Below are positions 8,217 through 32,000 of a stretch of DNA of 32,000 nt, piece by piece. A program made the translations under genes and the position numbers. Every line of letters starts with the position of its first letter. Position 1 is the stretch's first letter. The notes below the pieces were generated by a model that worked only from the letters and a program-made list of their open reading frames with translations, was not told where the DNA came from and searched no databases. Origin of the DNA: Oleispira antarctica RB-8 (GTDB taxonomy: Bacteria > Pseudomonadota > Gammaproteobacteria > Pseudomonadales > Oceanobacteraceae); NCBI GenBank assembly GCA_000967895.1, contig FO203512.1, forward strand, positions 1,293,350-1,325,349, written 5' to 3'.

Positions 8217-10349
8217 TTATAGAATTTCAATGTTTGATTGCTTACGGCAATAGAACTGATACATTCCCGCAAAAATACTCTCATCGTCCTGTTCCACTGT
8301 ATCCCAATTTTCTAATGTATTGTTACCTTTTAGCTTACCAATTGTGCTTTCGAAAGCTTGGTGAGCGCTGGTGGTCGGTAGCATGCCGATAAAATCGAGC
8401 TTATTATTCGCAAGTAAATTTGAGATTTTAGTGGCTGTAAATTGATGTTCTTGTGCGTGGAATATTAAGTCACGGCAATTACTCATACTGTAAAAATCAT
8501 TAGAATTAACAATTTCATTCCAGTCTCCAGGAATTTGATTCATTAATAACGCTTGGCGTAATAATCGTTGATCCAGTGCCTTACCTTCATTTTTCTCTGA
8601 TTGCAGGTTGCTCTGTGCAATGAGTTTTCTAAAAGTGATTACTTGCTTACGTGCTGCTTCGCTGTATAGAGCAATTTTCATTACCCCAGTAGGCGATAGA
8701 AGGTGTTGTAGGCTCTGCAAGCCTTGCTCGGGGTTTTCCATGTGGTGAAGCACCCCAGAGCATTCAATGACATCAAACAAGATTGGGAAGTCGCTGAATT
8801 CTAAAATATCCGCCTGTATAAACTGAATGTTTTCTACATTATATTTACTCGCTTGTTGTTTAGCATATGCTAAAGAACGACTACTTAAATCGATAGCAAT
8901 AATATTCAAATCATTGAAGTAGCTGGCTAAACGAATAGCTTGGCGGCCTGTGCCACAACCCGCGACGAGTACGTTTAATTTTTTCTTTCCTTGCCAGTGA
9001 CTTAAATTTAAATGTGGAAAATTCTTTAATAGTGCCTGTTGATAACTACTTGCAGTATTGAAACCAATATCTTTCCAGCGCGGGTAAGGGTTTTCTTCGT
9101 ATTGAGCTTGGACTTTTAGAGAGACAGAGTTTCTATTGCCTCTATTTTTATTGTTCAGGTTTTTATTAGAGCGATTGGTATGTGACCAGTAGGGCAATTT
9201 TTTAGCCAGTTGAATTTCTTTATCACGATTGTTAATTGCGTAATCAATGATGTCGGCTAAATAACTGTTTTTTAATGCCTGTGTGACGTGCTTAGACGCT
9301 AATATTTCAGCGAGTTTTGTCTGAGATAAATCTTTGTATTGTGCCAAGATAAGAATCGCAGGAGCTATATCATCAAGCTTCCATTCAGTTTGTTCGGTTA
9401 CTTGCAGTAATAGTGTTTCTAAGCCAGAAATTATTTCTTGTTCGTTTTGGGTTACTGGCCAAACGTATTCATTTAATTGAGCTTGAACGGCCATGTCGTG
9501 CGCCAGCTCTAAATGAATGCTGGGGATGGTCATGTCTTGAACGGTATTAAATAACAAGGTTTGCCTAAGGCTAATAAATAAACGTTCTAATAAAGCATCG
9601 CAAAAATGGAAACGTTTTAAGCTATTTAATAATAACAGATCGCTCGCAATTTGATCAAACTCAAGTGGCGTGCTGGCTTCATTAATTTTAAGTTTATGAT
9701 GCAGCAGTGTCGTAATCAGATTTCTTAATAGTGAATGATCAACGTTTTCAAAATTTAGGTAGCGTAGAACGTTTGCTTCTAATTCTGGAGAATAAAAATC
9801 AGCATTAATATGTGAGGCCGATTCAAATAACTTATTCCTAATGTGTGGGTCGTTTTCTTGCGTCTTGATTAATTCTTGATACAGCTGAAATGCTTCAACG
9901 TATTTGCCTTGTTCTAAATAAGTATAAGCCAGAGATGAAGCTGAACGCGTTGCCACCTTGGATATTTTTAATGACGCGCTAAAATGTTTTTCAGCTAGGG
10001 TCAGTTGCCCTAAAGCCAAGGCAATATGGCCAGCACTGTACAGTGCGGTAGAGCTATCGGGTTTTGTGCTTAGAGCGCGATCAATAATGCTTTGCGCTTT
10101 GTGCGGATTACCCACGAATAATTCAATACGTGCATATAAGTTAAGCCCTTTAATGCCGCTAGGATTAATATCAAGGGCTTGCTTAACCTTGTACAAGGCA
10201 GTCTCTAATAAGCCCTCGTTGATATCGGTGGCATGTTCAGCAGATTGCAGCTTGGCGAAGTCACGACTCGCCTCTTGTACCAACAAGGTATAAGAGTCGA
10301 GATCAATACGACGGGTCGTTTTTGTATTAGAGGCATGTAAAAGGTTCAT
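8217..10349 (-). CDS. TPR-repeat protein fused to a class I SAM-dependent methyltransferase (710 aa), function unknown
   Basis: The N-terminal third has TPR-like repeats (..ALYKVKQALDINPSGIKGLNLYARIELFVGNPHKAQSIIDRAL..; ..LAYTYLEQGKYVEAFQLYQELIK..). The C-terminal part has methyltransferase motifs: LNVLVAGCGTGRQAI (motif I), IIAIDLS, IQFIQADILEF, FDVIECSGVLHHM. It is the only minus-strand gene in the window. Confidence 0.85.
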   Translation of the reverse strand: MNLLHASNTKTTRRIDLDSYTLLVQEASRDFAKLQSAEHATDINEGLLETALYKVKQALDINPSGIKGLNLYARIELFVGNPHKAQSIIDRALSTKPDSSTALYSAGHIALALGQLTLAEKHFSASLKISKVATRSASSLAYTYLEQGKYVEAFQLYQELIKTQENDPHIRNKLFESASHINADFYSPELEANVLRYLNFENVDHSLLRNLITTLLHHKLKINEASTPLEFDQIASDLLLLNSLKRFHFCDALLERLFISLRQTLLFNTVQDMTIPSIHLELAHDMAVQAQLNEYVWPVTQNEQEIISGLETLLLQVTEQTEWKLDDIAPAILILAQYKDLSQTKLAEILASKHVTQALKNSYLADIIDYAINNRDKEIQLAKKLPYWSHTNRSNKNLNNKNRGNRNSVSLKVQAQYEENPYPRWKDIGFNTASSYQQALLKNFPHLNLSHWQGKKKLNVLVAGCGTGRQAIRLASYFNDLNIIAIDLSSRSLAYAKQQASKYNVENIQFIQADILEFSDFPILFDVIECSGVLHHMENPEQGLQSLQHLLSPTGVMKIALYSEAARKQVITFRKLIAQSNLQSEKNEGKALDQRLLRQALLMNQIPGDWNEIVNSNDFYSMSNCRDLIFHAQEHQFTATKISNLLANNKLDFIGMLPTTSAHQAFESTIGKLKGNNTLENWDTVEQDDESIFAGMYQFYCRKQSNIEIL

Positions 10350-15911: not shown

Positions 15912-15935
15912 GAATAAAAGGTCGAGGTGGTGGTT

Positions 15936-16538
15936 ATGGTTAATCGTGCGGATATCAACTCTGTTTTATTACAGATGCGTCAAGTACGTCAGCAAATGCA
16001 AACCACTGATCCAGCGTCGACTGTTGGCATGCAAAATACGATACAAAATCAGTTGCAAAGCCCCAATCAAAATTCTGCCGTCGGGGCACCACAAAACAGT
16101 TTTGCGGCGCAATTACAGCAGCAAAGAAGTCAGCTTGATCCTGCTGCTATGACTTCTCCTTCACCGTCTAATATGATGGCTTCGAACGTTAATCCTTCTA
16201 CCATGACCCCGTCGCAGTTTCGCAATGAATTAACTCAGCAAGATTTGATGAATCAAACTGCTGCGTTAGATACTCGTCCGGGCAATCAGATGAACTTTTC
16301 GTCGTCTGCTGCGAATCCTAGTATCGGCGAAATGATGGGCAATGCGATTAACCAAGTTAACGCTACTCAAAAACACGCGGGTAGCATGAGTACGCGTTAT
16401 ACCCAGGGTGATCCAAATATCGACTTACCCGAAGTGATGGTGGCGATGCAAAAATCCAGTGTTTCTTTTCAAGCAATGTCGCAGGTACGCAATAAGTTAT
16501 TAGAAGCGTATAAAGACATTATGAACATGCCAGTATAG
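15936..16538 (+). CDS. fliE: Flagellar rod adaptor FliE, about twice the normal length (200 aa from ATG 15936; the ORF opens at GTG 15927)
   Basis: The C terminus GDPNIDLPEVMVAMQKSSVSFQAMSQVRNKLLEAYKDIMNMPV and SIGEMMGNAINQVNATQK are canonical FliE. ATG 15936 is about 8 nt from the RBS GAGGTGG. A Q/N/S/P/M-rich segment of about 105 aa lies between the N-terminal helix and the conserved core. Confidence 0.9.
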   Translation: MVNRADINSVLLQMRQVRQQMQTTDPASTVGMQNTIQNQLQSPNQNSAVGAPQNSFAAQLQQQRSQLDPAAMTSPSPSNMMASNVNPSTMTPSQFRNELTQQDLMNQTAALDTRPGNQMNFSSSAANPSIGEMMGNAINQVNATQKHAGSMSTRYTQGDPNIDLPEVMVAMQKSSVSFQAMSQVRNKLLEAYKDIMNMPV

Positions 16539-19338: not shown

Positions 19339-20391
19339 GTGACGGCTATGACGACGACTACGGTGAATACGATGAAAGAAGATGAGGATGATGAGTTTGA
19401 GGCAAGCAGTGAAGATATTGAGATAAAACCGTGGGATTTGCCTTATTGGCATGGTGGGCCAAAAGGTACAAAAAAAGAAGTTGTCGATGAGACGGTGGCT
19501 GATGAAGAGGTTGATGTTGTTGAGCCGCTTACGGTTGAAGAGCTGGAAGCTATTCGCAGTGAAGGCTACGAAGAAGGTTTTTTGCAAGGCTTAAACGAAG
19601 GTCGAGACAAGGGTGAAAAAGAGGGCTTGGCGACGGGTAAAGTCGAGGGTCATAAAGAAGGCGTGAAAGAGGGTACGCAAGAAGGTAATCGAATTGGTTT
19701 TGAAGCTGGGCAGGCGGAAGGTCTTACGTCGGGTAAAGAAGAAATAAGCGAAGCGGCGAGTAACTTGGCAAAATTAAGCCAGCAGTTAGAGCAAAGTCTG
19801 GTTGAAAAAGACAGTGCATTGCCTAAAGTTTTGAGCCAGTTAATTAGAACGGCGTGCGAAACGATTATTGAGCGTGAGTTAGCGCAAGGCGATGATCATA
19901 TTACTAAGAAAGTATTGTCGGCGCTTGATCAGCTTCCTAATGGTGCTGAAAATATTAAAATTTATGTTAGTCCCGCAGATTCGGTGCATTTAGAGCATGG
20001 CTTAAGTCATTCTGGTCGTGAAATGCATTTTACGGTGGATGACGTTTTAGATGCAGGCAGTGCTCGAATTACCACGACGCAATCGTTAATTGAATTTAGC
20101 CTGCGTGAACGAATGGACGCTGTATTTGAGCTGATCGATCAGGAGTGTGAAAAACTTGATCTATCGGATATTGACGGTGAGCCGTTAGCTACGGAAGAAC
20201 CTGTTATTGAAGAAGAACCTGTTGTCGAAGAAGAGCCTGTCATCGAAGAAGAGCCTGTCATCGAAGAAGAGCCTGTCATCGAAGAAGAACCTGTCATCGA
20301 AGAAGAACCTGTTGTCGAAGAAGAACCTGTCATCGAAGAAGAACCTATAGCAGCCGATAACGATGTGACTGAAGAAGATGACTTGCCATGA
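19339..20391 (+). CDS. fliH: Flagellar export ATPase regulator FliH with an acidic tandem-repeat C-terminal tail (start uncertain: GTG 19339, ATG 19348 or ATG 19372)
   Basis: Glycine/alanine-repeat helix [58 protein letters not shown], then a FliH core (..[14 protein letters not shown]..). The stop overlaps the fliI start (ATGA). The gene sits between fliG and fliI. Confidence 0.9.
20194..20346 (+). repeat. 18-bp in-frame tandem repeat, about 8.5 copies, encoding (EEEPV[I/V])n
   Basis: The unit GAAGAAGARCCTGTYRTY is repeated head to tail. Copies differ only at a few mostly synonymous positions (GAA/GAG, GTT/GTC, ATT/ATC), plus Ile/Val. Confidence 0.95.
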
Positions 20392-21737
20392 GTTTGAGCG
20401 ATCAAATTAGTAATATCAGTCTTGAAAAATTATCACTGCAAAAAAAAGCCAGCGGACGCTTAATCCGTATGGTGGGATTAACTCTAGAGGCTGAAGGCCT
20501 TGTTGTAAAAATTGGCGATCGTTGCATGGTTGAACGTCGTGATGATACCGATATTGAAGCCGAAGTGGTTGGCTTTGATGGCAGTCGTATATTTCTTATG
20601 CCGATTGAACAAGTTGATGGCTTGCAGGCTGGGACTAAAGTTAGCCCCCTGTCGGGCTCTAACGGCGTGCCAGTCGGCTTTCAATTGCTGGGTCGTGTAC
20701 TTGATGGTATTGGCCGACCTTTAGACGGTAAAGGCCCACTGCATGCCGAAGAAGGTTCATTGCAAGGCGAGCAGATTAATCCATTGCATCGAGATCCTAT
20801 TCGCACCACCTTAGATGTGGGCATACGTTCTATTAATGCGCTGATGACTGTGGGTCGTGGTCAGCGTTTAGGGCTATTTGCAGGCAGTGGCGTGGGTAAA
20901 AGTATGCTGCTGGGTATGATGACACGTTTTACCGAAGCGGATATTACTGTGGTAGGTTTAATTGGTGAGCGTGGCCGAGAAGTAAAAGAATTTATTGATG
21001 AAATTTTAGGTGAAGAAGGCATGGCGCGTTCGGTGGTGATTGCTTCTCCAGCTGACGATTCTCCCTTGATGCGTCTACGTGCTGCGATGTATTGCACATC
21101 GGTAGCCGAGTACTACCGTAAGCAAGGTAAAAACGTATTACTGCTTATGGATTCTTTAACCCGTTATGCCCAAGCCCAGCGAGAAATTGCATTGGCGGTT
21201 GGCGAACCTCCTGCAACCAAGGGTTATCCACCTTCGGTATTTACCAAAATTCCTAAGTTAGTAGAGCGCGCGGGTAATGGTGAAGCAGGTGGTGGTTCGA
21301 TCACCGCGTTTTATACGGTGTTAAGTGAAGGTGATGATTTACAAGATCCGGTGGCCGATGCCAGTCGTGCTATTTTGGATGGCCACATTGTATTATCGCG
21401 AAAATTAGCCGATGAAGGACATTACCCTGCGATTGATATTGAAGCGTCGATCAGTCGTGCGATGCCGCAAATAGTATCAAAAGATTGGCTACGTAAAGCT
21501 CAAATGCTGCGTCAGTTGTATGCACACTACCAAGAGAATAAAGATTTAGTGAGTGTGGGGGCATATCAAGCAGGGACCGACCCTACGCTGGATTTGGCGT
21601 TGAATCGAATGCCCATGATTCAAAGCTTCTTGCAACAGGAATTAACTGAGTGCGTTAAAATTGACGCCAGTCTTGAGCAGTTAAATGTCATTCTTCCTGA
21701 TGTGCCGCAGGCGGATGTGAGTGGGCAAACTGTATGA
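20388..21737 (+). CDS. fliI: Flagellum-specific type III export ATPase FliI
   Basis: Walker A GSGVGKS, Walker [10 protein letters not shown], and conserved ERAG...[21 protein letters not shown] overlaps with fliH (start) and fliJ (end). Confidence 0.97.
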
Positions 21738-22183
21738 GTAAGCAACGAGTTAAGCGTTTAGGCTTTGTATTAAAAATGGCGGCTGATAAAGAACAGCAAG
21801 ATTTAAAGGTATGGGGTCAATATCAGCAGAAGCTAGAGCAGGAAGTTGGCACGCTCACCCAACTTGAGCAATATATGACGGAATACCGTAGCAGTTTAAC
21901 CAGTCAGCATGCCGCACCTATTCAAGGTGGACAGATACAAAATACCATTGCTTTTATTGAACAAATTAAAGAGGCAAGTGGTCATCAGCAGCAGCAAATC
22001 GATCTGGTTCAGCAACAAGCCGAGGGTGCTAAGCGCGTCTATTTGGCGGCGCGCGCAAAGGCTGAAGCCTTGCGTAAGCTGATTGAAAAATTAAATCTAC
22101 AAGCGTATGCACTGGAAGAAAAGCAAGATCAGAAAATGATGGATGAATTTGCTGCCCGCAGTGCTCGTAACCGTCAGTTATAG
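21734..22183 (+). CDS. fliJ: Flagellar export protein FliJ
   Basis: 149-aa coiled-coil protein ([45 protein letters not shown]...). It is translationally coupled to fliI in the conserved position. Confidence 0.85.
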
Positions 22184-22305
22184 TTTTAGAACTCGTCTTT
22201 ATTAAATTCCTATATTCACAATCCTTTCTTTATATTCCAATCAACATTAGCAGCTTTCCAATTGCCGTCTATTCTTAAAGTAAATGAAAATAGGAATGGA
22301 ATGAC

Positions 22306-22599
22306 ATGTCTGAAGGGCATCAAGTTGAATGCGGTGAGCGAATGACCATCGAAAAGGTCGAGAGTTTGTATAGCCAGTTAGAATCAGCGTTGTTAGAGCA
22401 CGGTAAAATTGAGCTTATTGCTGATCGTGTTCAGCAGTGCGATACCGCGTCACTTCAGTTAATCGTAAACCTTCTTAAAGCATCAAAACAGCAAGGTCAT
22501 AGTGTGATATGGATTAAACCTTCGCAGGCTATTATCAATGTGGCTGAGCTGTTGGGCTTAATTGAACCGCTAGAGCTGACACAACATATTGTGCGGTAG
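22306..22599 (+). CDS. Small STAS-domain protein (97 aa), first gene of the chemosensory block
   Basis: IELIADRVQQCDTASLQLIVNLLKASKQQGHSVIWIKPSQAIINVAELLGLIEPLEL has the beta-alpha pattern of STAS / anti-sigma-antagonist-like (MlaB-like) proteins. It has D-T-A-S instead of the canonical DSSGLG. Confidence 0.7.
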   Translation: MSEGHQVECGERMTIEKVESLYSQLESALLEHGKIELIADRVQQCDTASLQLIVNLLKASKQQGHSVIWIKPSQAIINVAELLGLIEPLELTQHIVR

Positions 22600-22625
22600 C
22601 AATTTATTCAGAAGCAATTTATTCA
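22598..22625 (+). repeat. Direct repeat AGCAATTTATTCA x2 at a 15-bp period, between the STAS gene and cheY
   Basis: Identical 13-mers at 22598-22610 and 22613-22625. The first overlaps the STAS stop codon. Confidence 0.8.
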
Positions 22626-22646
22626 CAAGATTGAGGGAGTATGCCA

Positions 22647-23009
22647 ATGGCAACCATTTTGGCGGTAGACGATTCTGCATCAATGCGACAAATGGTCACG
22701 TTCACGTTAAAAGGTGCAGGCTATGATGTTCAGGAAGCTTGTGATGGCAGTGAAGCTTTAAACATCGCTAAAACGCAAAAATTTGATTTGGTCTTGTCGG
22801 ATGTGAATATGCCCGTTATGGATGGTATTCAATTGGTTACAGAGCTACGCACACTGCCTGAGTACAAGTTTGTGCCGATTCTTATGCTAACAACAGAGTC
22901 TTCTGGTGATACAAAAATGGCGGGTAAAAAAGCAGGTGCGACGGGCTGGATTGTTAAGCCATTTAATCCAGATCAGCTATTAAATACCATTAAGAAAGTA
23001 TTAGGTTAA
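22647..23009 (+). CDS. cheY: Chemotaxis response regulator CheY (the ORF also opens at ATG 22641)
   Basis: ILAVDDSASMRQMV...LVLSDVNMPVMDG...ILMLTTES...GATGWIVKPF is a single-domain CheY. ATG 22647 is 8 nt from the RBS GAGGGA; ATG 22641 is only 2 nt from it. Confidence 0.93.
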   Translation: MATILAVDDSASMRQMVTFTLKGAGYDVQEACDGSEALNIAKTQKFDLVLSDVNMPVMDGIQLVTELRTLPEYKFVPILMLTTESSGDTKMAGKKAGATGWIVKPFNPDQLLNTIKKVLG

Positions 23010-23014
23010 TTATT

Positions 23015-25135
23015 ATGAGTATTGATCTCTCGCAATTTCATCAGGTTTTCTTTGAAGAAAGTTTTGAAGGCTTGGATATTATGGAGTCCAGTTTATTAGC
23101 ACTGGATTTAGCGGACGTTGATGCTGAAACTATTAATACTATTTTTCGTGCGGCGCATTCAATTAAGGGAGGCGCGGGCACTTTTGGCTTTATGCAAATA
23201 TCCGGTTTTACTCATGTACTGGAAACATTATTAGATGAAATTCGAGGGGGGGCACGGGAAATAGAGCAGGAACATGTTGATATTTTTTTGCAATGCGTTG
23301 ATTGCTTGCGAGGCTTGATGAGTGATCTGCAAGCAGGCTCCGAGCCTGAGATGACTCAAGCTAATGAACTGAAAAGTAAGTTTGAGATTATTTTAGCCGG
23401 AGAGGCTGTCTGTGTTGATAGTGAGGCCGCGACCGGATCGGCGATAGAAAACCAAAGCTTTGATTCAGACCCAGCGTCAGGTTCTGACAGTCGTAAGAAA
23501 GGTTGGAAAATTGAGTTTATTCCCTGTGAAGATGTTTTATGCACCGGTAATGAACCTTATAGAATGTTTCGTGAGCTAAAGGATTTAGCCGAAGCGGAAG
23601 CGGGCAGTCTTGATGTTATTCCTCATTTAGAGGCATTACCTGAATTCTCTGGGATGCACCCAGAGATGTGCTATCTCTCTTGGACTGTATTTGTGCGTGC
23701 CGATGTAGAATTGGCTGACATTGAAGAAATATTTGAATGGGTTGTAGACGATTGCGAAATTCGCTATGAACGCCTTTCAGACACAGAAGTGGTTGAAGCA
23801 TCGGTTGCTGTTGAATCAAAAGTTGAAAACTCTGCCGTCGAAGAGTCAATCGCCGTTGAAGAAACGGTAGAAGAAACGATAGAAAAAACGGTGGCGATTG
23901 CAGAAGCACCATCCCCTAAAGCAGCCAATAAAACAGTAGAAAATACCTCTATACGCGTCTCCATAGATAAGATTGATGGCTTGATCAATATGGTGGGTGA
24001 GTTAGTTATAACTCAATCCATGCTCGGTCAGTTGGGCCAAGAATTTGATATGAGTCGAATCCAACGTTTACAAGAAGGCTTGTCGCAGCTTGAGCAAAAT
24101 ACTCGCGAGCTGCAAGAAAGTGTGATGAAAATTCGCATGCTGCCAATCAGTTTTGCGTTCAGTCGTTTTCCTCGCCTGGTTCATGACTTGAGTAAACAGC
24201 TTGAGAAAGAAGTTGAGCTGGTAATGATTGGCGAAAATACCGAGTTGGATAAAACGGTGATGGAGAAAATTGGCGATCCTCTGGTTCACCTTGTGCGCAA
24301 CTCCCTTGATCATGGCTTGGAGTGCCCACAACAACGGCTTGAAAATGGTAAGTCCAGTATCGGTACTATTACGCTAAACGCCTATCATCATGGTGGTTCT
24401 ATTGTTATTGAAGTGAAAGATGATGGTGCGGGTTTAAACAAAGATAGAATTCGCAATAAAGCGATTGAAAAAGGATTGATTGCTGAAGATGAACATCTGA
24501 CTGATGGTCAGATTTACGATCTTATTTTTCAGCCAGGATTTTCAACCGCCGATGTAGTGAGCGATGTCTCTGGCCGAGGTGTGGGAATGGATGTGGTGCG
24601 CCGAAATATTGCAGAGCTTAATGGCTCTATTGATGTTTCGTCAACCCCAGGAGAAGGCTCAGTTTTCTCAATTAGACTGCCACTTACGTTAGCAATTCTT
24701 GATGGTCAGTTGGTTAAAGTGGGCGAAGAAATCTATATTTTCCCCTTGGTCTCTATTGTGGAATCTATTCAGCTAGAAAAATCGATGTTGAATAATATTA
24801 CCGGTAATCAGTTTGTGATGCAGCTGCGTAATGATTTTGTTCCTATTGTTTGCTTGCAAGATATTTTTAATATTAAGGCAGAAAAGAAAGATCTTGAAGG
24901 CGCGATGCTGGTGGTTGTAGAGGGTGATAATGGCAAGGTAGGTATTGTCGTTGATGAACTGTTAGGCCAGCAACAAGTCGTGATTAAAAGCCTCGAGAAA
25001 AACTACCAAAAAGTCGATTCGATTTCCGGTGCCACAATTTTAGGGGATGGTACTGTTGCCTTAATTGTGGATATCTCGGGTTTAAATAATAAGTCGCCAG
25101 ATAAAAAATCTGACAATCAAACTCAAGCTGCTTAA
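23015..25135 (+). CDS. cheA: Chemotaxis histidine kinase CheA
   Basis: Hpt FRAAHSIKGGAGTFGF; dimerisation/H-box-like IRVSIDKIDGLINMVGELVI; HATPase DPLVHLVRNSLDHG, DDGAGLN, GRGVGMD; C-terminal CheW-like domain. Confidence 0.96.
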   Translation: MSIDLSQFHQVFFEESFEGLDIMESSLLALDLADVDAETINTIFRAAHSIKGGAGTFGFMQISGFTHVLETLLDEIRGGAREIEQEHVDIFLQCVDCLRGLMSDLQAGSEPEMTQANELKSKFEIILAGEAVCVDSEAATGSAIENQSFDSDPASGSDSRKKGWKIEFIPCEDVLCTGNEPYRMFRELKDLAEAEAGSLDVIPHLEALPEFSGMHPEMCYLSWTVFVRADVELADIEEIFEWVVDDCEIRYERLSDTEVVEASVAVESKVENSAVEESIAVEETVEETIEKTVAIAEAPSPKAANKTVENTSIRVSIDKIDGLINMVGELVITQSMLGQLGQEFDMSRIQRLQEGLSQLEQNTRELQESVMKIRMLPISFAFSRFPRLVHDLSKQLEKEVELVMIGENTELDKTVMEKIGDPLVHLVRNSLDHGLECPQQRLENGKSSIGTITLNAYHHGGSIVIEVKDDGAGLNKDRIRNKAIEKGLIAEDEHLTDGQIYDLIFQPGFSTADVVSDVSGRGVGMDVVRRNIAELNGSIDVSSTPGEGSVFSIRLPLTLAILDGQLVKVGEEIYIFPLVSIVESIQLEKSMLNNITGNQFVMQLRNDFVPIVCLQDIFNIKAEKKDLEGAMLVVVEGDNGKVGIVVDELLGQQQVVIKSLEKNYQKVDSISGATILGDGTVALIVDISGLNNKSPDKKSDNQTQAA

Positions 25136-25146
25136 GGGAGTAGTGC

Positions 25147-25695
25147 ATGATAAATGCAGCTCAGAAAAACAAGAATGATAAAGGCTCTAGTATTAACACT
25201 TCAGGTACGAGTGATGATGAACAGCAATATTTAACTTTCATTATGGCAGGAGAAGAATACGGCGTTGATATTTTAGCGGTTCAAGAGATACGAGGCTGGG
25301 AACCAACCACGGTTATTCCAAATGCACCCAGTTATATCAAAGGTGTTATTAATCTACGAGGAACCATCGTTCCCATTATGGATTTGCGAAGTCGATTTAA
25401 TTTAGAGCGTATTGAATACAGCCCAGTGACCGTGGTTATTATTCTTAAGGTCGAAACCGAGCGTGGCGAGCGGGTTATGGGAATTGTTGTTGATGCAGTA
25501 TCCGACGTTCACTCGATCAGTGATTCTGATACCCGTAATAGTCCCGATTTAATAGAAGATTTAAATACCGAGTTTATTCGCAGCTTGGTTTCGGTAGATG
25601 ACAGTATGATTATTTTATTGGACGTACAGCGACTATTAACGATTGATAAGCAATTAGTAGATTTAGCCGCTGATGCAATAGTCGATACCCAATAG
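25147..25695 (+). CDS. cheW: Chemotaxis coupling protein CheW
   Basis: YLTFIMAGEEYGVDILAVQEIRGW...PNAPSYIKGVINLRGTIVPIMDLR is the CheW signature. An RBS AAGGGAG lies upstream. Confidence 0.95.
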   Translation: MINAAQKNKNDKGSSINTSGTSDDEQQYLTFIMAGEEYGVDILAVQEIRGWEPTTVIPNAPSYIKGVINLRGTIVPIMDLRSRFNLERIEYSPVTVVIILKVETERGERVMGIVVDAVSDVHSISDSDTRNSPDLIEDLNTEFIRSLVSVDDSMIILLDVQRLLTIDKQLVDLAADAIVDTQ

Positions 25696-25731
25696 GGCAC
25701 TTAAGAGCTTTATGATAATAGGATAAATATC

Positions 25732-28281
25732 ATGTCTGAAGAGCAAGATTCAACACATTGGAAAACGCCAGCACTAACGGTTATTCCAGCCGCATTCGCA
25801 TTTTTGTATTTGGTGGTTACGGCCGCTAACGTCGGTTTGTCTGCCGTAGTCGCTGTAATAGGCGTTGTTCTATCTATCGTTTTGGGCTGGGTGTTGTTAT
25901 CCAAGCATGAGGTGCAAGATGGTAATGCCATTGAAACTGAGCGGTTAGTGAAAGCGCTGAATGTGTGTAATACCAATGTGATGTTAGCAGATGCTAATAA
26001 TGAGATTTGTTATACCAATGAATCCGTCAATATTATGATGAAAAACGCCGAAGCGGCTATTCGCAGTGAACTTCCTAATTTTAATAGTGCCAGTTTAATT
26101 GGCACTAATATGGATGTTTTTCATAAAAATCCTGCTCATCAAAAAAGTATGGTTGCGAGCTTAAATAAAACATATAAAACACACATTGTGGTGGGTGGTC
26201 GTACTCTTGGCTTAATTGCTACGCCTATTTTTTCAGATGACGAATTACGTTTGGGAACGGTGGTTGAGTGGTCTGATAAAACAGACGAATTAGCGAAAGA
26301 ACATGATGAGCAGCAAGTAGTAAAAGAAAATATTCGTATTCGAAAAGCGTTAGATGTTTGTAATACCAATGTGATGATGGCGGATGAAAATCTAAACATT
26401 GTTTACATGAATAAAGCCGTAAGTGACATGATGATTGAGGCCGAAACCGATTTAAAAGTGGCGCTACCCCATTTTAAGGCTCATGAATTGATGGGGGTTA
26501 ATATTGATGTTTTCCATAAAGATCCATCGCATCAGCGTGGTATGTTAGAAAAGTTAACGCATGTATATAAAACCACGATCGAAGTAGGAATACGTACGTT
26601 TAGTTTAATCGCAACGCCTGTATTTGAAGAAGGCCAACGTCTAGGCACTGTCGTCGAATGGCTTGATAAAACAGAAACTCTTGCGCAAGAAATTGCAGAA
26701 AAGATTGTGGCTGATACCAATGCTCGAGTAAAACAGGCGCTGGATTCTGTTTCAGGTAATACCATGATCGCCGATAATGACTTTAACATTATTTATATGA
26801 ATGCCGCGGTGCAGGGCATGATGAGTCATGCTGAAGGAGACATACAGAAAGATTTACCTCATTTTGATGCGAATAATCTGGTCGGTAAAAATATTGATAC
26901 CTTCCATAAAAACCCTGCTCATCAGCGCGATTTAGTCGCTAAAATGACAGGGACTTATAAAGCACACATCGTTTTGGGGGGGCGAACGTTTGTATTGATT
27001 GCTAATCCGATTGAAAATGAACAAGGCGAACGCATAGGTGCTGTAGTGGAATGGCTGGATCGTACCGACGAAGTGGCTGTTGAAAAAGAAGTCGATGGTT
27101 TGGTGCAAGCGGCGATTAATGGCGATTTATCGCATCGTTTAGAAACCAGCAATAAAGAAGGTTTTTTCTTAAGTCTGGCCGATGGACTTAATAACTTAGT
27201 CGGCATCGCTGAAGACGTCGTTAACGATACCGCACGAGTATTGGATGCTTTAGCTAATGGGCGATTAACAGAAACCATTACGGCTGATTATCAAGGCTCA
27301 TTTGGCAAGCTCAAACAAGATTCTAATGCGACGGTAGTCAAGCTCACCGAGATTATAACGAATATTCGTGAGTCGGCCTCGACGGTCTCGATAGGTGCCA
27401 ATGAGATTGCTCAGGGTAATGCTGATTTGAGTCAACGGACTGAATCACAAGCGTCAAACCTTGAAGAAACAGCGTCTAGTATGGAAGAGATGACCAGTGC
27501 GGTGAAGCAGACCAGTGAGAATTCTATACATGCAACTGAGTTGGCTGTTTCAGCCAGTAAGCAAGCGGCACAAGGTGGGGAAGTTGTGAGCCGTGCAGTG
27601 ATGGCAATGGACGAGATTAACCAAGCCAGTAATAAAATTGCTGATATTATTGGAGTCATTGATGAGATCGCCTTTCAAACAAATTTATTAGCCTTAAACG
27701 CCGCGGTAGAAGCAGCACGAGCAGGAGAGCAGGGCAGAGGCTTTGCCGTTGTGGCCGGGGAAGTACGAAGTCTCGCTCAGCGTTCGGCGGGTGCCGCGAA
27801 AGAAATTAAAGAACTGATTCGTGACAGTGTGGATAAGGTCAGCGCGGGAACTAACTTGGTTAACGAGTCAGGGAAAACATTAAAAGATATTGTATCCTCG
27901 GTGAAGCGAGTAACCGATATGATTGAAGAAATCAGTATTGCAGCCCACGAGCAGTCATCGGGAATAGAGCAGGTCAATAGTGCAATTTCGCAAATGGATG
28001 AAATGACACAACAAAATGCGGCGCTAGTAGAAGAGGCAACAGCTGCGGGTGAAGCTATGGCAGAGCAATCCCGAGGCATGATGAACCTGATGGATTTCTT
28101 TACCTTGAACAATTCAGCGACCAGCATGGAAGGTTATGTTAACCGCCCCTCTATTTCTGCACCGACCAATTCTACTCATTTTAATCCCGTTAGCCAGAAA
28201 CCTGTCACACAAAAGTCTTCTCACTCCCGTGAAGGCGCTATTGTGAGTGATTCAGCCGATGATGAATGGCAAGAGTTTTAA
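25732..28281 (+). CDS. Methyl-accepting chemotaxis protein: N-terminal membrane hairpin, three tandem Aer2-type PAS domains, HAMP-like region, signalling domain, C-terminal EWQEF pentapeptide
   Basis: Hydrophobic aa 13-56. A PAS unit occurs three times (..CNTNVM.AD....I.Y.N......M...E..I...LP.F....L.G.N.D.FHK.P.HQ........YK..I..G.RT..LIA.P......R.G.VVEW.D.T). The MCP hairpin tip reads [42 protein letters not shown]. Confidence 0.95.
25942..27069 (+). repeat. Triplicated PAS-coding unit (aa 71-185, 201-315, 331-446)
   Basis: Three collinear units of about 115 aa at 25942-26286, 26332-26676 and 26722-27069. Each has FHK[ND]P[AS]HQ and VVEW[SL]D[KR]T. Confidence 0.85.
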
Positions 28282-28338
28282 AACTTGATTATGCCTAATG
28301 CTCATGCAGCTGTCGATTACAGGGAAAAGGAATTCCCT

Positions 28339-29142
28339 ATGACAAGCAAAGACTTCGAGCGGATCGCAGATTTAGCAGGCCGTTATACCGGAATTGTATT
28401 AGGCGAGCATAAACACGATATGGTTTATGGCCGAATCGCTCGTCGAGTTCGCAAGTTGAATCTATCAAGTTTCACGGCTTATTTGGATTTTTTAGAAGCC
28501 AACCTTCAGCAAGAATTATCGAATTTTATTAATGTTATTACGACAAACTTAACCTCATTTTTTAGAGAAAATCACCATTTTGATTTTCTTTATAAGACGG
28601 TATTAGCAGAGGTTAAAAGAAAGAATCATGCGACGAAGCGCGTGCGAATTTGGTCTGCGGGTTGCTCGACAGGGATGGAGCCCTATTCAATAGCGATGAC
28701 GTTGATTAAGTTTGGCATACCAGCTGATTGGGATGTGAAAATATTAGCAACGGACTTAGATTCTGATGTGCTAGATAAAGCACGAACTGCTGTGTACTCA
28801 GTCAATGAGGTTGATGGTTTAGCAGAAGGGGTTGTTAAAAATTATTTTCAACGTGGCGGCACAGGAAAAGAAGTAAGAGTAAAAGAAAGGGTGAGTCAGT
28901 TTGTTCATTTTAAGCGTTTAAATCTGCTAGAAAACTGGCCAATGAAAGGGCCGTTTGACTTTATATTTTGTCGAAATGTTGTGATCTATTTTGACAAGCC
29001 AACCCAGAAAATATTATTTGATCGTTATGCTGAGCTGTTATCGGTAGGAGGCTATCTATTTATTGGTCATTCTGAAAATTTACACGGCATCAGTGATCGC
29101 TTTGAAAATTTAGGAAATACTGTTTATAGGAAGATACGCTAA
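28339..29142 (+). CDS. cheR: Chemotaxis protein methyltransferase CheR (the ORF also opens at TTG 28285 and ATG 28291)
   Basis: DFERIADLAGRYTGIVLGEHKHDMVYGRIARRVRKLNL (N-domain), TNLTSFFRE, IWSAGCSTGMEPYSIAM (SAM site), IFCRNVVIYFD. ATG 28339 has the best RBS (AAGGAA, 7-nt spacer). Confidence 0.93.
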   Translation: MTSKDFERIADLAGRYTGIVLGEHKHDMVYGRIARRVRKLNLSSFTAYLDFLEANLQQELSNFINVITTNLTSFFRENHHFDFLYKTVLAEVKRKNHATKRVRIWSAGCSTGMEPYSIAMTLIKFGIPADWDVKILATDLDSDVLDKARTAVYSVNEVDGLAEGVVKNYFQRGGTGKEVRVKERVSQFVHFKRLNLLENWPMKGPFDFIFCRNVVIYFDKPTQKILFDRYAELLSVGGYLFIGHSENLHGISDRFENLGNTVYRKIR

Positions 29143-29807
29143 TGACCGCGTTGAATAATAACGTCTCTCAGCCTGAACAGCCTCCTTTAAGTCAAGATTT
29201 TACACATATAAACCGTTATTGGGACAATCTTCATCAAGTCTGGGCGGCTAAAATATTGCCGGGTGAATTGTATGTGTCTACCCATGGGGAAATGATTTCA
29301 ACTGTATTAGGATCTTGTATTTCGGTGTGCATTCGCGACAAGAAAAAAGGGATTGGAGGCATGAATCATTTTATGCTGCCGCAAAATAATGAATTTTCTA
29401 GTGAGAGTTGGGGGACTAATCCGATTACTTCAGCGTCTCGTTACGGTAATTGGGCGATGGAGTATTTGATCAATGCTATTTTAAAATGCGGTGGTGAAAA
29501 GAAAAACTTTGAAGTGAAAGTTTTTGGTGGTGGTCAGATGATGGCAAGAATGACTGATATTGGCCAAAAAAATATCCTATTTGTGTATCAATATTTAGCA
29601 GAAGAAAAACTGAGGATTGAGGCCAGTGATGTGGGTGATATTTATGCTCGAAAAGTTTTGTATTTTCCTGATACGGGTTGTGTAAAAGTTAGGCGTATAA
29701 AACATATTAAAAACGATACAATTATTCGTCGTGAAACTGAATACGAACAGCATGTGAAAGTTGTGGATGAAGCTAAGCCTGATGCGAGTAATGTCGAGCT
29801 ATTTTAG
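29142..29807 (+). CDS. cheD: Chemoreceptor glutamine deamidase CheD
   Basis: ILPGELYVSTHGEMISTVLGSCISVCIRD...GGMNHFMLP contains the CheD catalytic Cys and His context. The start overlaps the cheR stop (TAATG). Confidence 0.9.
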   Translation: MTALNNNVSQPEQPPLSQDFTHINRYWDNLHQVWAAKILPGELYVSTHGEMISTVLGSCISVCIRDKKKGIGGMNHFMLPQNNEFSSESWGTNPITSASRYGNWAMEYLINAILKCGGEKKNFEVKVFGGGQMMARMTDIGQKNILFVYQYLAEEKLRIEASDVGDIYARKVLYFPDTGCVKVRRIKHIKNDTIIRRETEYEQHVKVVDEAKPDASNVELF

Positions 29808-29816
29808 GGAGGGGTC

Positions 29817-30848
29817 ATGGTTAAAATTCGTGTATTGGTAATTGATGATTCTGCACTCATTAGACAAATGCTAACAGAAATATTAAACAGTCGAGATGAT
29901 ATAGACGTTGTAGGCACTGCTGAAGATCCTTTTATTGCTAGAGAAAAAATAAAGCAGTTATCGCCCGATGTATTAACTCTAGACATTGAAATGCCGAGAA
30001 TGACGGGGTTGCAGTTTTTAAAAAACCTAATGCGCTTGCGCCCTATGCCTGTGATTATGGTTTCTACATTAACTGAACGTGGTGCGCCGGAAACGTTAGA
30101 GGCTTTAGAGCTGGGTGCTGTCGATTATATTTGCAAGCCTAAAGCGAAGACGGAAACCAAGCTTAGAATATTTGCCGATGATCTCGTAAGTAAAGTAAGA
30201 ATGGCATCAACCGCTCGGGTGCGGCCATTTGAACAGAATAAAACCCGTGTTCCTGTCGCTCGATCAAGTGCCACGTTTTCTAAAGTGATTGCTGTGGGTG
30301 CTTCTACTGGAGGAACGGAAGCTATTAAAGAACTGCTCACGTCGGTTCCTGAAAATTGCCCGCCCATTTTAATTACTCAGCACATTCCTAAAGTATTCAG
30401 TACGTCTTTTGCTGAACGGCTTGATCGCTGTTTGGCGATGGAAGTATTTGAAGCCCAAGAAGGTATGATAATTCGTTCTGGCTGTGTGTATATAGCACCT
30501 GGCGACTATCACTTAACGATTGCCAAGTCGGGAACTAAGATGGTTTGTCGTATTATTCAAACGGAAAAGGTAAACCGTCACCGACCTGCTGTTGATGTAA
30601 TGTTCAACTCAATATTGGAAGCTTATGGCCCCAACGTTGTGGCCGTTATGTTAACGGGCATGGGGAATGATGGCGCTCAGGGAATGCTTAAATTAAAGCA
30701 AGCGGGCGCGGTGACTTACGCGCAAGATGAGGCGACGTCGGTTGTCTGGGGGATGCCTCAGGCGGCATACAATATCGGCGCTGTCGATGAATTGCTTCCT
30801 CTGCAAAAAATTACTGAGAGAATGCTTTGGTCAGCGCAAAAAAAATGA
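29817..30848 (+). CDS. cheB: Chemotaxis response regulator protein-glutamate methylesterase CheB
   Basis: Receiver VLVIDDSALIRQ...LTLDIEMPRMTG. Esterase motifs AVGASTGGTEA, ITQHIPKVFS, MLTGMGNDGA. An RBS GGGAGGGG lies upstream. Confidence 0.96.
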   Translation: MVKIRVLVIDDSALIRQMLTEILNSRDDIDVVGTAEDPFIAREKIKQLSPDVLTLDIEMPRMTGLQFLKNLMRLRPMPVIMVSTLTERGAPETLEALELGAVDYICKPKAKTETKLRIFADDLVSKVRMASTARVRPFEQNKTRVPVARSSATFSKVIAVGASTGGTEAIKELLTSVPENCPPILITQHIPKVFSTSFAERLDRCLAMEVFEAQEGMIIRSGCVYIAPGDYHLTIAKSGTKMVCRIIQTEKVNRHRPAVDVMFNSILEAYGPNVVAVMLTGMGNDGAQGMLKLKQAGAVTYAQDEATSVVWGMPQAAYNIGAVDELLPLQKITERMLWSAQKK

Positions 30849-30917
30849 TCATTTAAAACGCTGGGTTAAGGCTGAATATGGTCTAAAGTATAAATAGGTT
30901 ATTAAGGGAGTTAAGAA

Positions 30918-31223
30918 ATGGGTGTTCAGTCGAATATTGATAGTAGTGGAAAAGAGCTAACGATTAAGATTGGTGGCCGCTTTGATTTTAGTGCGCATCA
31001 AGAATTCCGCGATGCTTACGAAAATATTTCAACGGCTGTTAGTCGCTATGTTGTCGATTTAGGCAATACATCGTACTTGGATAGTTCGGCATTGGGGATG
31101 TTGTTATTACTTCGAGATCATGCAGGTGGAGATAATGCCAGCATTAAAATAGTTAAGTGTAATGAAGACGTACGAAAAATATTGACGATTTCTAATTTTG
31201 AACAGCTGTTTACAATTCAATAG
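30918..31223 (+). CDS. STAS-domain anti-sigma-factor antagonist-like protein with a canonical phospho-serine motif
   Basis: VVDLGNTSYLDSSALGMLLLLRD carries the D-S-S-x-L-G motif of SpoIIAA/RsbV-type antagonists. The protein is 101 aa. An RBS AAGGGAG lies upstream. Confidence 0.88.
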   Translation: MGVQSNIDSSGKELTIKIGGRFDFSAHQEFRDAYENISTAVSRYVVDLGNTSYLDSSALGMLLLLRDHAGGDNASIKIVKCNEDVRKILTISNFEQLFTIQ

Positions 31224-31243
31224 CGTAAGTGCGGGTGGCTAAC

Positions 31244-32000
31244 ATGAAAATCCTTATTGCTGACGATAATGCCTCAGATCGATTATTATTGAGTAAAATC
31301 ATCAGCAAACAGGGTCATGATGTTGTTGAGGCAGAAGATGGTAAGCATGCTATCGATTGTTACCTTGAGGACGCGCCTGACATTATTTTAATGGATGTCA
31401 TGATGCCGGTACTTGATGGTAAGGCTGCGGCAAAAGAAATTAAGCGCATTGCAGGTGAAGATTTAATTCCTATTATATTTTTAACTTCACTTATTGATGC
31501 TCAAAGTCTTGCGGATTGTTTAGAGTCTGGTGGTGATGATTTTTTAACCAAACCTTATAACCATATTATTCTTAAAGCTAAAATAGATGCATTTGTTCGT
31601 ATGAAAAACATGCATGGTATTTTACAGAAGCAGCGAGATACTATTGCTGCGAATAATCAGCACATGTTGCAGGAGCAGCATGTTGCAAAAGCGGTATTTG
31701 ATAATGTTGCGCACTCAGGTTGTTTAGATGCCGCTAATATTAAATACATGCTGTCTCCTTTAGCGGTATTTAATGGTGATGTTTTATTAGCCGCCCGTAA
31801 ACCTTCTGGTGGTATGCATGTACTTTTGGGCGACTTCACGGGCCATGGGTTGCCAGCGGCGATTGGGGCAATGCCAGTAGCTGAAATATTTTATGGTATG
31901 ACCGCAAAGGGTTTTGGGTTGCGTAATATTCTGCGAGAAATTAATACCAAGCTTAAGAATATTTTACCGGTAGGCTTTTTCTGCTGCGCAGCGGTTGTCG
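31244..32000 (+). CDS. Response-regulator receiver fused to a PP2C/SpoIIE-type serine phosphatase; the 3' end lies beyond the window
   Basis: My own translation from ATG 31244 (RBS GGGTGG): MKILIADDNASDRLLLSKII...IILMDVMMPVLDG...IFLTS...TKPY (receiver), then ...VFNGDVLLAARKPSGGMHVLLGDFTGHGLPAAIGAMPVAEIFY (start of the SpoIIE/PP2C domain). The frame is open to base 32000. It is absent from the ORF track because it has no stop in the window. Confidence 0.88.
   Translation, partial: MKILIADDNASDRLLLSKIISKQGHDVVEAEDGKHAIDCYLEDAPDIILMDVMMPVLDGKAAAKEIKRIAGEDLIPIIFLTSLIDAQSLADCLESGGDDFLTKPYNHIILKAKIDAFVRMKNMHGILQKQRDTIAANNQHMLQEQHVAKAVFDNVAHSGCLDAANIKYMLSPLAVFNGDVLLAARKPSGGMHVLLGDFTGHGLPAAIGAMPVAEIFYGMTAKGFGLRNILREINTKLKNILPVGFFCCAAVV

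Follow-up and report, generated by a model that had tools for sequence, protein, structure and literature searches.

The 3′ end of the window (the whole stretch of 32 000 nucleotides of Oleispira antarctica RB-8 DNA analysed here) probably carries, at positions 30918–32000, the complete hsbA and 44% of hsbR from its 5′ end, the leading two genes of an hsbA-hsbR-hptB unit that, judged from sequence, is orthologous to the HptB-HsbR-HsbA switch of Pseudomonas; we put the probability of this reading at about 0.78. Since these orthologues stand at the end of an F7 chemosensory cluster of a described, ancestral type, we class the locus as a further instance of known systems and not as a new kind of module. 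All its components fall into families already described, and apart from small differences its gene order has been published.

The STAS protein and the three-domain switch protein

[quoted passage not shown] Its product matches the Pfam families STAS_2 (E 2.1e-11) and STAS (E 2.9e-10), both beyond the curated cut-offs and far beyond chance. A STAS protein with a DSS motif had been proposed at this place from the letters alone, and its coordinates, its length and the segment YLDSSALG (residues 53–60) all proved correct. The predicted phospho-acceptor serine falls within the motif D55-S56-S57, its counterpart in P. aeruginosa being Ser56, and the YLDSSALGMLLLLRD block is near-invariant across the HsbA family. 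Compared with HsbA of Pseudomonas parafulva, also 101 aa long, the protein is 60% identical over 100 aa in a gap-free alignment.

The next gene, the hsbR orthologue, starts at 31244 on the plus strand and is open to the window end, so that 31244..32000 holds its 5′ part (757 nt, 252 of 574 codons) with the receiver and the start of the PP2C phosphatase, while the remaining PP2C and a GHKL kinase/anti-sigma domain lie past position 32000. The visible product matches Response_reg at E 3.8e-22 (residues 3–114) and the first third of SpoIIE/PP2C at E 5.7e-10 (residues 188–249). The motifs that the original prediction had named are all found in it, namely MDVMMP (D51), FLTS (T81) and KPY (K103) of the receiver and GDFTGHGLPAAIGAMP of the phosphatase at residues 196–211.

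The 3′ part of hsbR and the hptB gene were read from two contigs of the same species rather than of this strain, L001 and L002, which are 99.4–99.7% identical to the window DNA. The original prediction had asked whether the downstream sequence encodes a C-terminal kinase domain, and these contigs hold both a HATPase_c_2/SpoIIAB-like kinase domain and a neighbouring hptB. The complete HsbR (from L001) has 574 aa and consists of a receiver, a PP2C phosphatase and a SpoIIAB-like kinase/anti-sigma domain, which Pfam places at residues 3–114 (REC), 188–377 (SpoIIE, E 1.5e-35) and 442–563 (HATPase_c_2, E 7e-6). The HATPase_c_2 score of 26.5 bits is slightly below the Pfam cut-off of 27.4, and PF13581 stands in the pre-computed annotation of nearly all HsbR homologues. 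In an alignment of 32 HsbR sequences, G200, G202, E445, N449, G512 and G540-R541-G542 are invariant, and D51, D197, D319, D369-D370, D510 and G514 are kept in at least 90%; the N-box, G1 and G2 motifs and the PP2C aspartates are thus conserved in the family. AlphaFold2 prediction of the kinase domain from the single sequence reached a pLDDT of only 37, and an alignment of 24 sequences was used instead, which gave a model of the third domain with a pLDDT of 87. A Foldseek search with this model returned SpoIIAB (1til) at E 2e-4 and probability 1.0, and sequence-only searches of the PDB with the kinase domain gave weak matches to SpoIIAB and RsbW (E 0.3–1).

Orthology and gene order

Full-length HsbR is 45% identical to its P. 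parafulva counterpart. In L001 and L002, hptB starts 16 nt past hsbR and encodes an Hpt protein of 114 aa (H58 in HSFKG), which is 44% identical to HptB of P. parafulva, and in these near-identical contigs it is followed by fliK-fliL-fliM. The order in P. parafulva is fliJ-hsbA-hsbR-hptB-fliK. In the window, fliJ (21734..22183, plus strand), which directly precedes hsbA in Pseudomonas-type loci, is separated from it by a che block of 8.7 kb. The assignment to the HptB-HsbR-HsbA class of partner-switching modules, already put forward in the original prediction, is therefore upheld by the identities of all three proteins, by their domains, by the presence of hptB and by gene order.

To place the locus among its relatives, 87 hsbR loci were surveyed, 82 of them with downstream and 58 with upstream sequence. 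They came from a metagenome scan with only the PP2C and kinase part of the alignment; an earlier genome scan with the full-length alignment had been swamped by the generic receiver pattern, with just two of 80 loci relevant (P. parafulva and a Kangiellaceae MAG). An Hpt gene lies directly 3′ of hsbR in 77 of the 82 loci. Of the 58 loci, 37 have fliJ or fliI directly 5′ of hsbA and 11 have cheB there, a che neighbour thus being absent in most members of the surveyed family. The che-hsb order was also found in Thalassolituus, Bacterioplanes and Oleispira genomes.

The chemosensory block and its first STAS gene

The block between fliJ and hsbA lies on the plus strand throughout. It comprises an F7-type cheY (22641..23009; Response_reg E 1e-29), cheA (23015..25135; Hpt, dimerisation, HATPase and CheW domains in Pfam), a single copy of cheW (25147..25695), an Aer2-like receptor gene (25732..28281), cheR (28285..29142), cheD (29142..29807) and cheB (29817..30848), with cheW, cheR, cheD and cheB likewise assigned by Pfam. 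The receptor has PAS repeats, a HAMP domain and an MCP signalling domain, and it ends in the pentapeptide EWQEF. The linkage of the hsb pair to an Aer2-type che cluster, which the original prediction had pointed out, is conserved, and it has been described before, both for stage 1 F7 clusters (PMC7184735) and for che1-crsAR of S. oneidensis (PMC9855816).

Upstream of this run, 41 nt 5′ of cheY, lies a further STAS gene (22306..22599, plus strand) whose product of 97 aa (STAS_2, E 3.6e-10) is 100% identical to an annotated Oleispira antarctica protein. It reads CDTAS, and with D46-T47-A48 it has no canonical phospho-serine. D46 and A48 are invariant in its family, which spans Oleispira, Thalassolituus, Bacterioplanes and Vibrio, the segment being D-A-A-G in Vibrio. 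Its placement directly before cheY-cheA recurs in the loci L087, L088, L096, L097 and L172. Hence, the earlier observation of DTAS in place of DSS holds, but the suggestion that this protein is a second, non-canonical partner is not plausible, since the family has an invariant alanine at the phospho-serine position. By position and family residues, this gene corresponds to the STAS gene conserved at the 5′ end of stage 1 F7 clusters, and its product is predicted to be no second kinase substrate.

Promoter-like elements

The intergenic gap between cheB and hsbA (30849..30917, plus strand) is 69 nt long, has no gene inside and is the longest in the che-hsb run save for the gap before the first STAS gene. 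The hsbA promoter motif TGCTAAACCTTG, published for P. putida as the RpoS-type promoter PhsbA (bioRxiv 10.1101/2024.11.25.625174), is found both in Pseudomonas-like loci and in che-linked ones, 42–52 nt 5′ of the gene; the copy in the window, GGCTGAATATGG at 30870–30881, is degenerate and a weak match. A second promoter-like element precedes the first STAS gene (22247..22276, plus strand). It consists of TTAGCA and, after 17 nt, a C-preceded TATTCT (TCTATTCTT), is of the sigma-70/sigma-S type, and belongs to a region in which the block GCAGCTT...GCCGTCTAWYCTTA is kept at the equivalent place in L087, L093, L096 and L097. A sigma-54 reading of the conserved GGCAGCTT block 5′ of the same gene was ruled out by a misfit in GG-to-GC spacing. 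Across the whole window, the sigma-S 9-mer pattern has 26 matches against 53 expected and is not enriched, so that the 9-mer alone carries no weight and only positional conservation across genera counts. A scan for generic sigma-70 promoters and terminators gave fewer sites than shuffled sequences and nothing convincing between genes, and an Rfam scan of positions 20000–32000 gave no match.

Proposed mechanism and output

Beside the domains, catalytic residues, orthology, gene order and conservation observed here, we infer all steps of phosphotransfer and binding from the systems of Pseudomonas and Shewanella, with HsbR as a three-domain switch protein. With D51 of its receiver unphosphorylated, the C-terminal SpoIIAB-like kinase would phosphorylate HsbA at the serine of the DSS motif, and with the receiver phosphorylated, the PP2C domain would dephosphorylate HsbA. 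The phosphate would most likely reach the receiver from the neighbouring single-domain HptB, itself supplied by hybrid histidine kinases, as in the published HptB-to-HsbR-to-HsbA pathway (PMC6482189; bioRxiv 10.1101/2024.11.25.625174). The phosphorylation state of HsbA would then set its choice of binding partner; in relatives, HsbA is known to bind FlgM, a diguanylate cyclase or the kinase/anti-sigma domain of HsbR, which can hold RpoS.

It is possible, though we consider it somewhat doubtful, that the module acts mainly as a sigma-S regulator of the CrsR/CrsA type, in which the kinase domain of HsbR would sequester RpoS and HsbA, dephosphorylated or phosphorylated, would free it, with the general stress response rather than control of the flagellar sigma-28 as the main outcome. 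Two-hybrid assays showed binding of RpoS by the third domains of HsbR and CrsR (PMC6482189), the corresponding domain of HsbR here is modelled with a SpoIIAB-like anti-sigma fold, and V. cholerae cluster III is RpoS-dependent (PMC7534058). In addition, sigma-S-like promoter motifs stand before hsbA in relatives and before the first STAS gene in the window, and for P. putida it is reported that motility is not regulated by the system (bioRxiv 10.1101/2024.11.25.625174). The missing enrichment of the sigma-S 9-mer speaks against this reading, as does the variation of targets among P. aeruginosa, P. putida and S. oneidensis, owing to which homology cannot give the target here. Another route to RpoS, by an RssB/RssC-type pair in which a REC-PP2C adaptor and a STAS protein control RpoS proteolysis, is effectively refuted by scores and architecture. 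The resemblance noted in the original prediction amounts to weak similarity to the NCBIfam models of Pseudomonas RssB and RssC and to the P. aeruginosa RssB structure 3eq2, but the model scores are 49.9 bits against an equivalog cut-off of 700 and 19.4 against 250, RssB (a 394-aa model) lacks the kinase domain that HsbR has here, and the synteny is of the hsbAR-hptB type.

Whether the che genes feed this switch is a separate matter, and here the evidence pulls in two directions. That the pair serves the adjacent F7 pathway as its dedicated output, with phosphorylated CheA passing its phosphate to the receiver of HsbR so that the Aer2-like receptor would control the STAS switch, is in our view rather unlikely. 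In its favour, a 3′ STAS gene and a serine phosphatase gene define stage 1 F7 clusters (PMC7184735) and are found in Vibrio aquimaris and in the metagenomic locus L108, crsA-crsR lies within che1 of S. oneidensis, whose Che1 system has been proposed to have a role in RpoS regulation (PMC9855816), and stage 1 and 2 F7 systems are without an assigned output. Moreover, identities drop together over che-linked loci, for example from 88 to 53% for CheB and from 76 to 50% for HsbR, and this parallel fall suggests co-inheritance. On the other hand, hptB adjoins hsbR and is nearly always co-conserved with it, whereas a che neighbour is the exception in the surveyed family. The receiver of HsbR also points away from CheA: its helix α1 reads DR(L/M)LL..I(V/I)..QGH in che-linked and che-unlinked HsbR alike, is the same as in Pseudomonas HsbR, a substrate of HptB, and differs from the "RQM" pattern of CheY and CheB, the known CheA substrates encoded here. 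Furthermore, relatives keep a separate promoter-like motif in the cheB-hsbA gap (degenerate in the window), and the literature examined holds no experiment that demonstrates transfer from CheA to HsbR or CrsR in any species.

The adjacency might instead be positional only, an F7 che cluster having been inserted at the fliJ-hsbA junction with no talk between the two systems, and this we regard as a serious possibility, if short of an even chance. In Pseudomonas flagellar clusters, this junction is reported as a favoured site of insertion (bioRxiv 10.1101/2021.08.29.457346; P. putida literature), both flanks of the che block match the Pseudomonas gene order, and in a tree with the Vibrio homologue as its root, che-linked HsbR proteins branch from within the fliJ-linked ones, although this is a neighbour-joining topology, displayed without support values, whose root lies on a long branch. 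A bare insertion fits less well with the persistence of the che-hsb arrangement in Oleispira, Thalassolituus, Bacterioplanes and metagenomic lineages, down to 50% HsbR identity, or with the recurrence of cheB-(mcpA)-STAS-phosphatase in Vibrio and, outside flagellar clusters, in L108. The latter locus has a stage 1 3′ end, mcpA-STAS-HsbR-Hpt, outside any flagellar cluster. Co-inheritance of che and hsbAR over several genera, together with L108 and the arrangements in Shewanella and Vibrio, suggests that the Che link may be functional and not merely positional.

These observations also allow a more speculative scenario, which we hold to be improbable though worth stating: the Oleispira-type locus would preserve an ancestral single unit of Aer2/F7 and HsbA-HsbR-HptB, and the "orphan" hsbAR-hptB genes of Pseudomonas flagellar clusters would be a detached F7 (Che2-type) output. 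If so, ancestral F7 systems would have as their output a phospho-switch that acts on sigma-S, sigma-28 or c-di-GMP, and CheA would feed this switch directly or via HptB. The locus, otherwise ordinary as a sequence feature, suggests a possible origin of these Pseudomonas genes. The literature has yet to assign a function or an output to ancestral F7 systems of stages 1 and 2, among them Che2 of P. aeruginosa, cluster III of V. cholerae and Che1 of S. oneidensis, and here a complete Aer2-type F7 cluster abuts, inside a flagellar cluster, a clear orthologue of an experimentally tractable HptB-HsbR-HsbA switch. Oleispira and Thalassolituus therefore offer a natural system for asking whether a Che pathway that senses oxygen or gas communicates with a partner switch on sigma factors or c-di-GMP.

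Comparison with known systems

The che part of the locus is closest in order to the stage 1 F7 cluster (Ortega et al. 2020, PMC7184735), exemplified by V. cholerae cluster III and M. alcaliphilum. [quoted passage not shown] The F7 cluster of Vibrio aquimaris is colinear with the window, with identities of 47% for CheA, 50% for CheB and 61% for CheY. In contrast to stage 1 clusters, there is one cheW here but two in stage 1 and Vibrio aquimaris; an McpA-like receptor gene, present in Vibrio (L172) and in metagenomic L108, is absent between cheB and the 3′ STAS gene; hptB follows the phosphatase gene; and fliJ and fliK flank the cluster as a whole. The 3′ pair itself is nearer to Pseudomonas HsbA and HsbR (60% and 45% identity) than to the Vibrio STAS protein and regulator (43% and 34%).

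Three other systems share features with the locus. CheS of Sinorhizobium meliloti and Agrobacterium is a STAS-only protein encoded directly before cheY-cheA, like the first STAS gene here, with a likeness in position and domain only; CheS, known from α-proteobacteria, binds CheA and modulates the handling of CheY (PMC12654446). A profile search with the first STAS protein gave 408 matches, and the 120 listed among them are all of the Oceanospirillales type, with none of these named CheS. The siaABCD operon, to which the original prediction had drawn attention, is parallel to the hsb pair in architecture only. CrsR-CrsA of S. oneidensis (SO_2119, SO_2118) is likewise a REC-PP2C-kinase/anti-sigma protein with a STAS antagonist in an F7 che1 locus (PMC9855816), and its partner switch is set by the phosphorylation state of the STAS protein, as proposed for HsbA and HsbR. 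However, the crs pair lies 5′ of cheY (the stage 2 order), the list of the ten che1 genes names no Hpt, and HsbR and CrsR are only 25.5% identical (PMC6482189).

The hsb part matches the HptB-HsbR-HsbA system of Pseudomonas (PA3345-PA3347; PP_4362-PP_4364) in its order hsbA-hsbR-hptB directly 5′ of fliK, described there as an hsbAR-hptB-fliK operon (bioRxiv 10.1101/2021.08.29.457346), and likewise in its three-domain HsbR, its 101-aa HsbA with a DSS motif and the motif before hsbA in related loci. What sets the Oleispira locus apart is that cheB of an F7 cluster, and not fliJ, precedes hsbA, and that the promoter motif in the window is degenerate.

Identity of the STAS and receiver-phosphatase genes

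The 101-aa STAS protein encoded at 30918-31223 (+ strand; Pfam STAS_2 E 2.1e-11, STAS E 2.9e-10) carries YLDSSALG at residues 53-60, and alignment to solved structures places its DSS on the phospho-serine motif of SpoIIAA and TM1442. Twenty nt past it, on the same strand, an ORF begins at 31244 and is still open where the window stops. Over the 252 residues that can be read, it matches Response_reg (E 3.8e-22) and the initial third of the SpoIIE/PP2C domain (E 5.7e-10). Both genes had been described in the original prediction, and every motif quoted there is found. A protein identical to the STAS protein is encoded on nine public contigs, two of which continue downstream (L001, 99.4% identical to the window over 11,083 nt; L002, 99.7% over 3,571 nt). 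Read from these, the receiver-PP2C protein is 574 aa long, with a complete SpoIIE domain (E 1.5e-35) and, where the original prediction had proposed to look for a C-terminal HATPase kinase, a HATPase_c_2 match at residues 442-563 (E 7e-6; 26.5 bits, slightly below the 27.4-bit cut-off); PF13581 is found in almost every homolog.

In a 32-sequence alignment, G200, G202, E445, N449, G512 and G540-R541-G542 are invariant, and D51, D197, D319, D369-D370, D510 and G514 are kept in at least 90% of sequences; the conserved positions represent the receiver phospho-acceptor, the PP2C metal-binding sites and the N-box, G1 and G2 motifs of the kinase. An AF2 model of residues 400-574 (L001 11524-12051; 24 sequences; pLDDT 87, pTM 0.83) matches by Foldseek the anti-sigma kinase SpoIIAB (1til, E 2e-4, probability 1.0). 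Ahead of SpoIIAB, the nearest solved fold is that of LvrC, a Leptospira response regulator whose structure was released recently (9qih, E 4e-7), and this match suggests a wider family of SpoIIAB-like domains linked to receivers.

On L001 and L002, the gene that begins 16 nt past the stop codon encodes an Hpt protein of 114 aa (E 4e-13) whose histidine lies in HSFKG; fliK, fliL, fliM, fliN, fliOPQR, flhB and flhA come next. A genome scan led to Pseudomonas parafulva, which has the order fliH-fliI-fliJ-hsbA-hsbR-hptB-fliK-fliL-fliM, and its proteins are 60% (HsbA; 100 aa without gaps, each protein 101 aa), 45% (HsbR, full length) and 44% (HptB) identical to those studied here. Annotation of P. 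putida assigns PP_4364-PP_4362 as orthologues of HsbA, HsbR and HptB, and they are transcribed as hsbAR-hptB-fliKLMNOPQR-flhB (bioRxiv 10.1101/2021.08.29.457346). The rest of the window also shares the order of the Pseudomonas flagellar cluster (fliC, flaG, fliD, fliS, fleQ, fleS, fleR, fliE-J). Together, the P. parafulva identities and the shared order identify the module, at the level of sequence, as an HsbA-HsbR-HptB orthologue. Thus, the predicted module is real and its assignment to this family was right, while the proposed likeness to RssB/RssC was rejected, NCBIfam scores falling far below the cut-offs.

In the flagellar region, the flagellin (877 aa, 763-3396) is unusually large, and in both it and the FliD filament cap (1318 aa, 4099-8055) long central inserts lie between ordinary N- and C-terminal Pfam domains; a second, partial flagellin lies at 28-405. 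Between fliD and fliS, a 710-aa TPR and SAM-methyltransferase protein (8217-10349, minus strand) could be a flagellin-modifying enzyme. The FliE ORF (15927-16538, 203 aa) has its FliE domain limited to residues 123-203, reflecting either a long N-terminal extension or a listed GTG start too far upstream. Within fliH (19339-20391), an 18-nt tandem repeat (20194-20346, 8.5 copies, 92% matches) gives FliH an acidic C-terminal tail of EEPVIE repeats.

The che block and the first STAS gene

Between fliJ and hsbA lie genes for a STAS protein, CheY, CheA, CheW, a PAS-HAMP receptor ending in EWQEF, CheR, CheD and CheB. This is the order of the stage 1 F7 cluster, the most ancient F7 type (Ortega et al. 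2020, PMC7184735), except that cheW is single and mcpA is absent. The complete order occurs on a Vibrio aquimaris replicon, whose proteins are 47% (CheA), 50% (CheB), 61% (CheY), 27% (5′ STAS), 43% (3′ STAS, the HsbA counterpart) and 34% (phosphatase) identical to those of the window; that cluster differs in having no Hpt gene, with the gene for FapA (flagellar assembly protein A) directly next (L172 15820-17493).

The first STAS ORF (22306-22599) is real, with the sequence CDTAS, and a 100% identical protein is annotated in Oleispira antarctica. It had been proposed as a non-canonical second partner of the switch. However, in its family (Oleispira, Thalassolituus, Bacterioplanes and Vibrio) D46 and A48 are invariant and residue 47 varies among T, S and A, so that Ala occupies the phospho-Ser position and the protein is therefore predicted not to be a canonical kinase substrate; instead, its gene is the STAS gene conserved at the 5′ end of stage 1 F7 clusters. 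Upstream, the block GCAGCTT...GCCGTCTAWYCTTA is conserved in the window and in the related che-linked loci L087, L093, L096 and L097. At 22247-22276 it reads as a candidate sigma-S-like -35/-10 promoter with a -13 C (TTAGCA, 17 nt, C-TATTCT), consistent with the RpoS dependence reported for V. cholerae cluster III (PMC7534058), although its 9-mer pattern by itself is not enriched across the window. A 15-nt direct repeat (22598-22629, 2.1 copies) lies within the 41-nt gap between this gene and cheY.

Spread of the che-hsb linkage

The order fliJ-che-hsbA-hsbR-hptB-fliK also occurs in Thalassolituus hydrocarboniclasticus, Bacterioplanes sanyensis and one Oleispira MAG. Gene context was surveyed by tblastn annotation in 80 loci from a metagenome scan (PP2C and kinase part as query) and seven others. 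An Hpt gene follows hsbR in 77 of the 82 loci with downstream sequence. Among the 58 with upstream sequence, hsbA is preceded by fliJ/fliI in 37, cheB in 11 and cheV-cheR in one, while nine have no assigned gene within 600 nt; in five of these nine (L106, L127, L131, L170 and L091) fliI lies 650-790 nt upstream, which would fit an undetected fliJ.

The cheV-cheR case, metagenomic locus L117 (6970-13877), reads cheV-cheR-hsbA-hsbR-hptB-recQ, the P. aeruginosa PA3349-PA3344 arrangement, and thus the che neighbors of the trio differ between lineages. Another metagenomic locus, L108, carries cheB, a 305-aa MCPsignal-only gene, STAS (74%), HsbR (50%) and Hpt, then fadBA, and represents a stage 1 3′ end plus hptB outside a flagellar cluster. 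HsbR identity to the query is 50% or higher in every che-linked locus, Che and HsbR identities dropping in parallel, and in a neighbor-joining tree displayed without support values and rooted on the long-branched Vibrio protein, che-linked HsbR is nested within fliJ-linked HsbR. Insertion followed by losses and an ancestral che-hsb unit are both possible histories; in P. putida, the hsbA-fliJ junction has been named a favored site of insertion (bioRxiv 10.1101/2021.08.29.457346).

Candidate phosphodonors of the HsbR receiver

The original prediction proposed the adjacent CheA as a possible kinase for the receiver, but hptB adjoins hsbR and is co-conserved with it. Two-component pairs owe their specificity mainly to the surface of helix alpha-1, which in HsbR reads DR(L/M)LL..I(V/I)..QGH in che-linked and che-unlinked proteins alike, unlike the RQM(V/L)T of CheY and CheB in the window and unlike the Vibrio F7-linked receiver. 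The motif TGCTAAACCTTG is shared by Pseudomonas-like loci and by che-linked L088 and L095-L097 (L093 has the variant GGCTAAGCTTGT), at 42-52 nt upstream of hsbA, a position that agrees with the RpoS-type promoter PhsbA of P. putida (bioRxiv 10.1101/2024.11.25.625174), and the window copy is degenerate (GGCTGAATATGG, 30870-30881). These features mildly disfavor a CheA-to-HsbR step and, indirectly, favor HptB as the likely phosphodonor.

Comparison with known systems

In its position directly before cheY-cheA, the first STAS resembles the α-proteobacterial CheS, which consists of a STAS domain alone and binds CheA (PMC12654446). In S. oneidensis, crsA-crsR lies inside che1 (PMC9855816). The role of stage 1 and stage 2 F7 systems has been called unclear (Ortega et al. 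2020, PMC7184735), and the locus is well suited, as a natural case, to testing what ancestral F7 systems control. It adds a new member to each of two systems already described: the HptB-HsbR-HsbA switch and the gene cluster of stage 1 F7 type.
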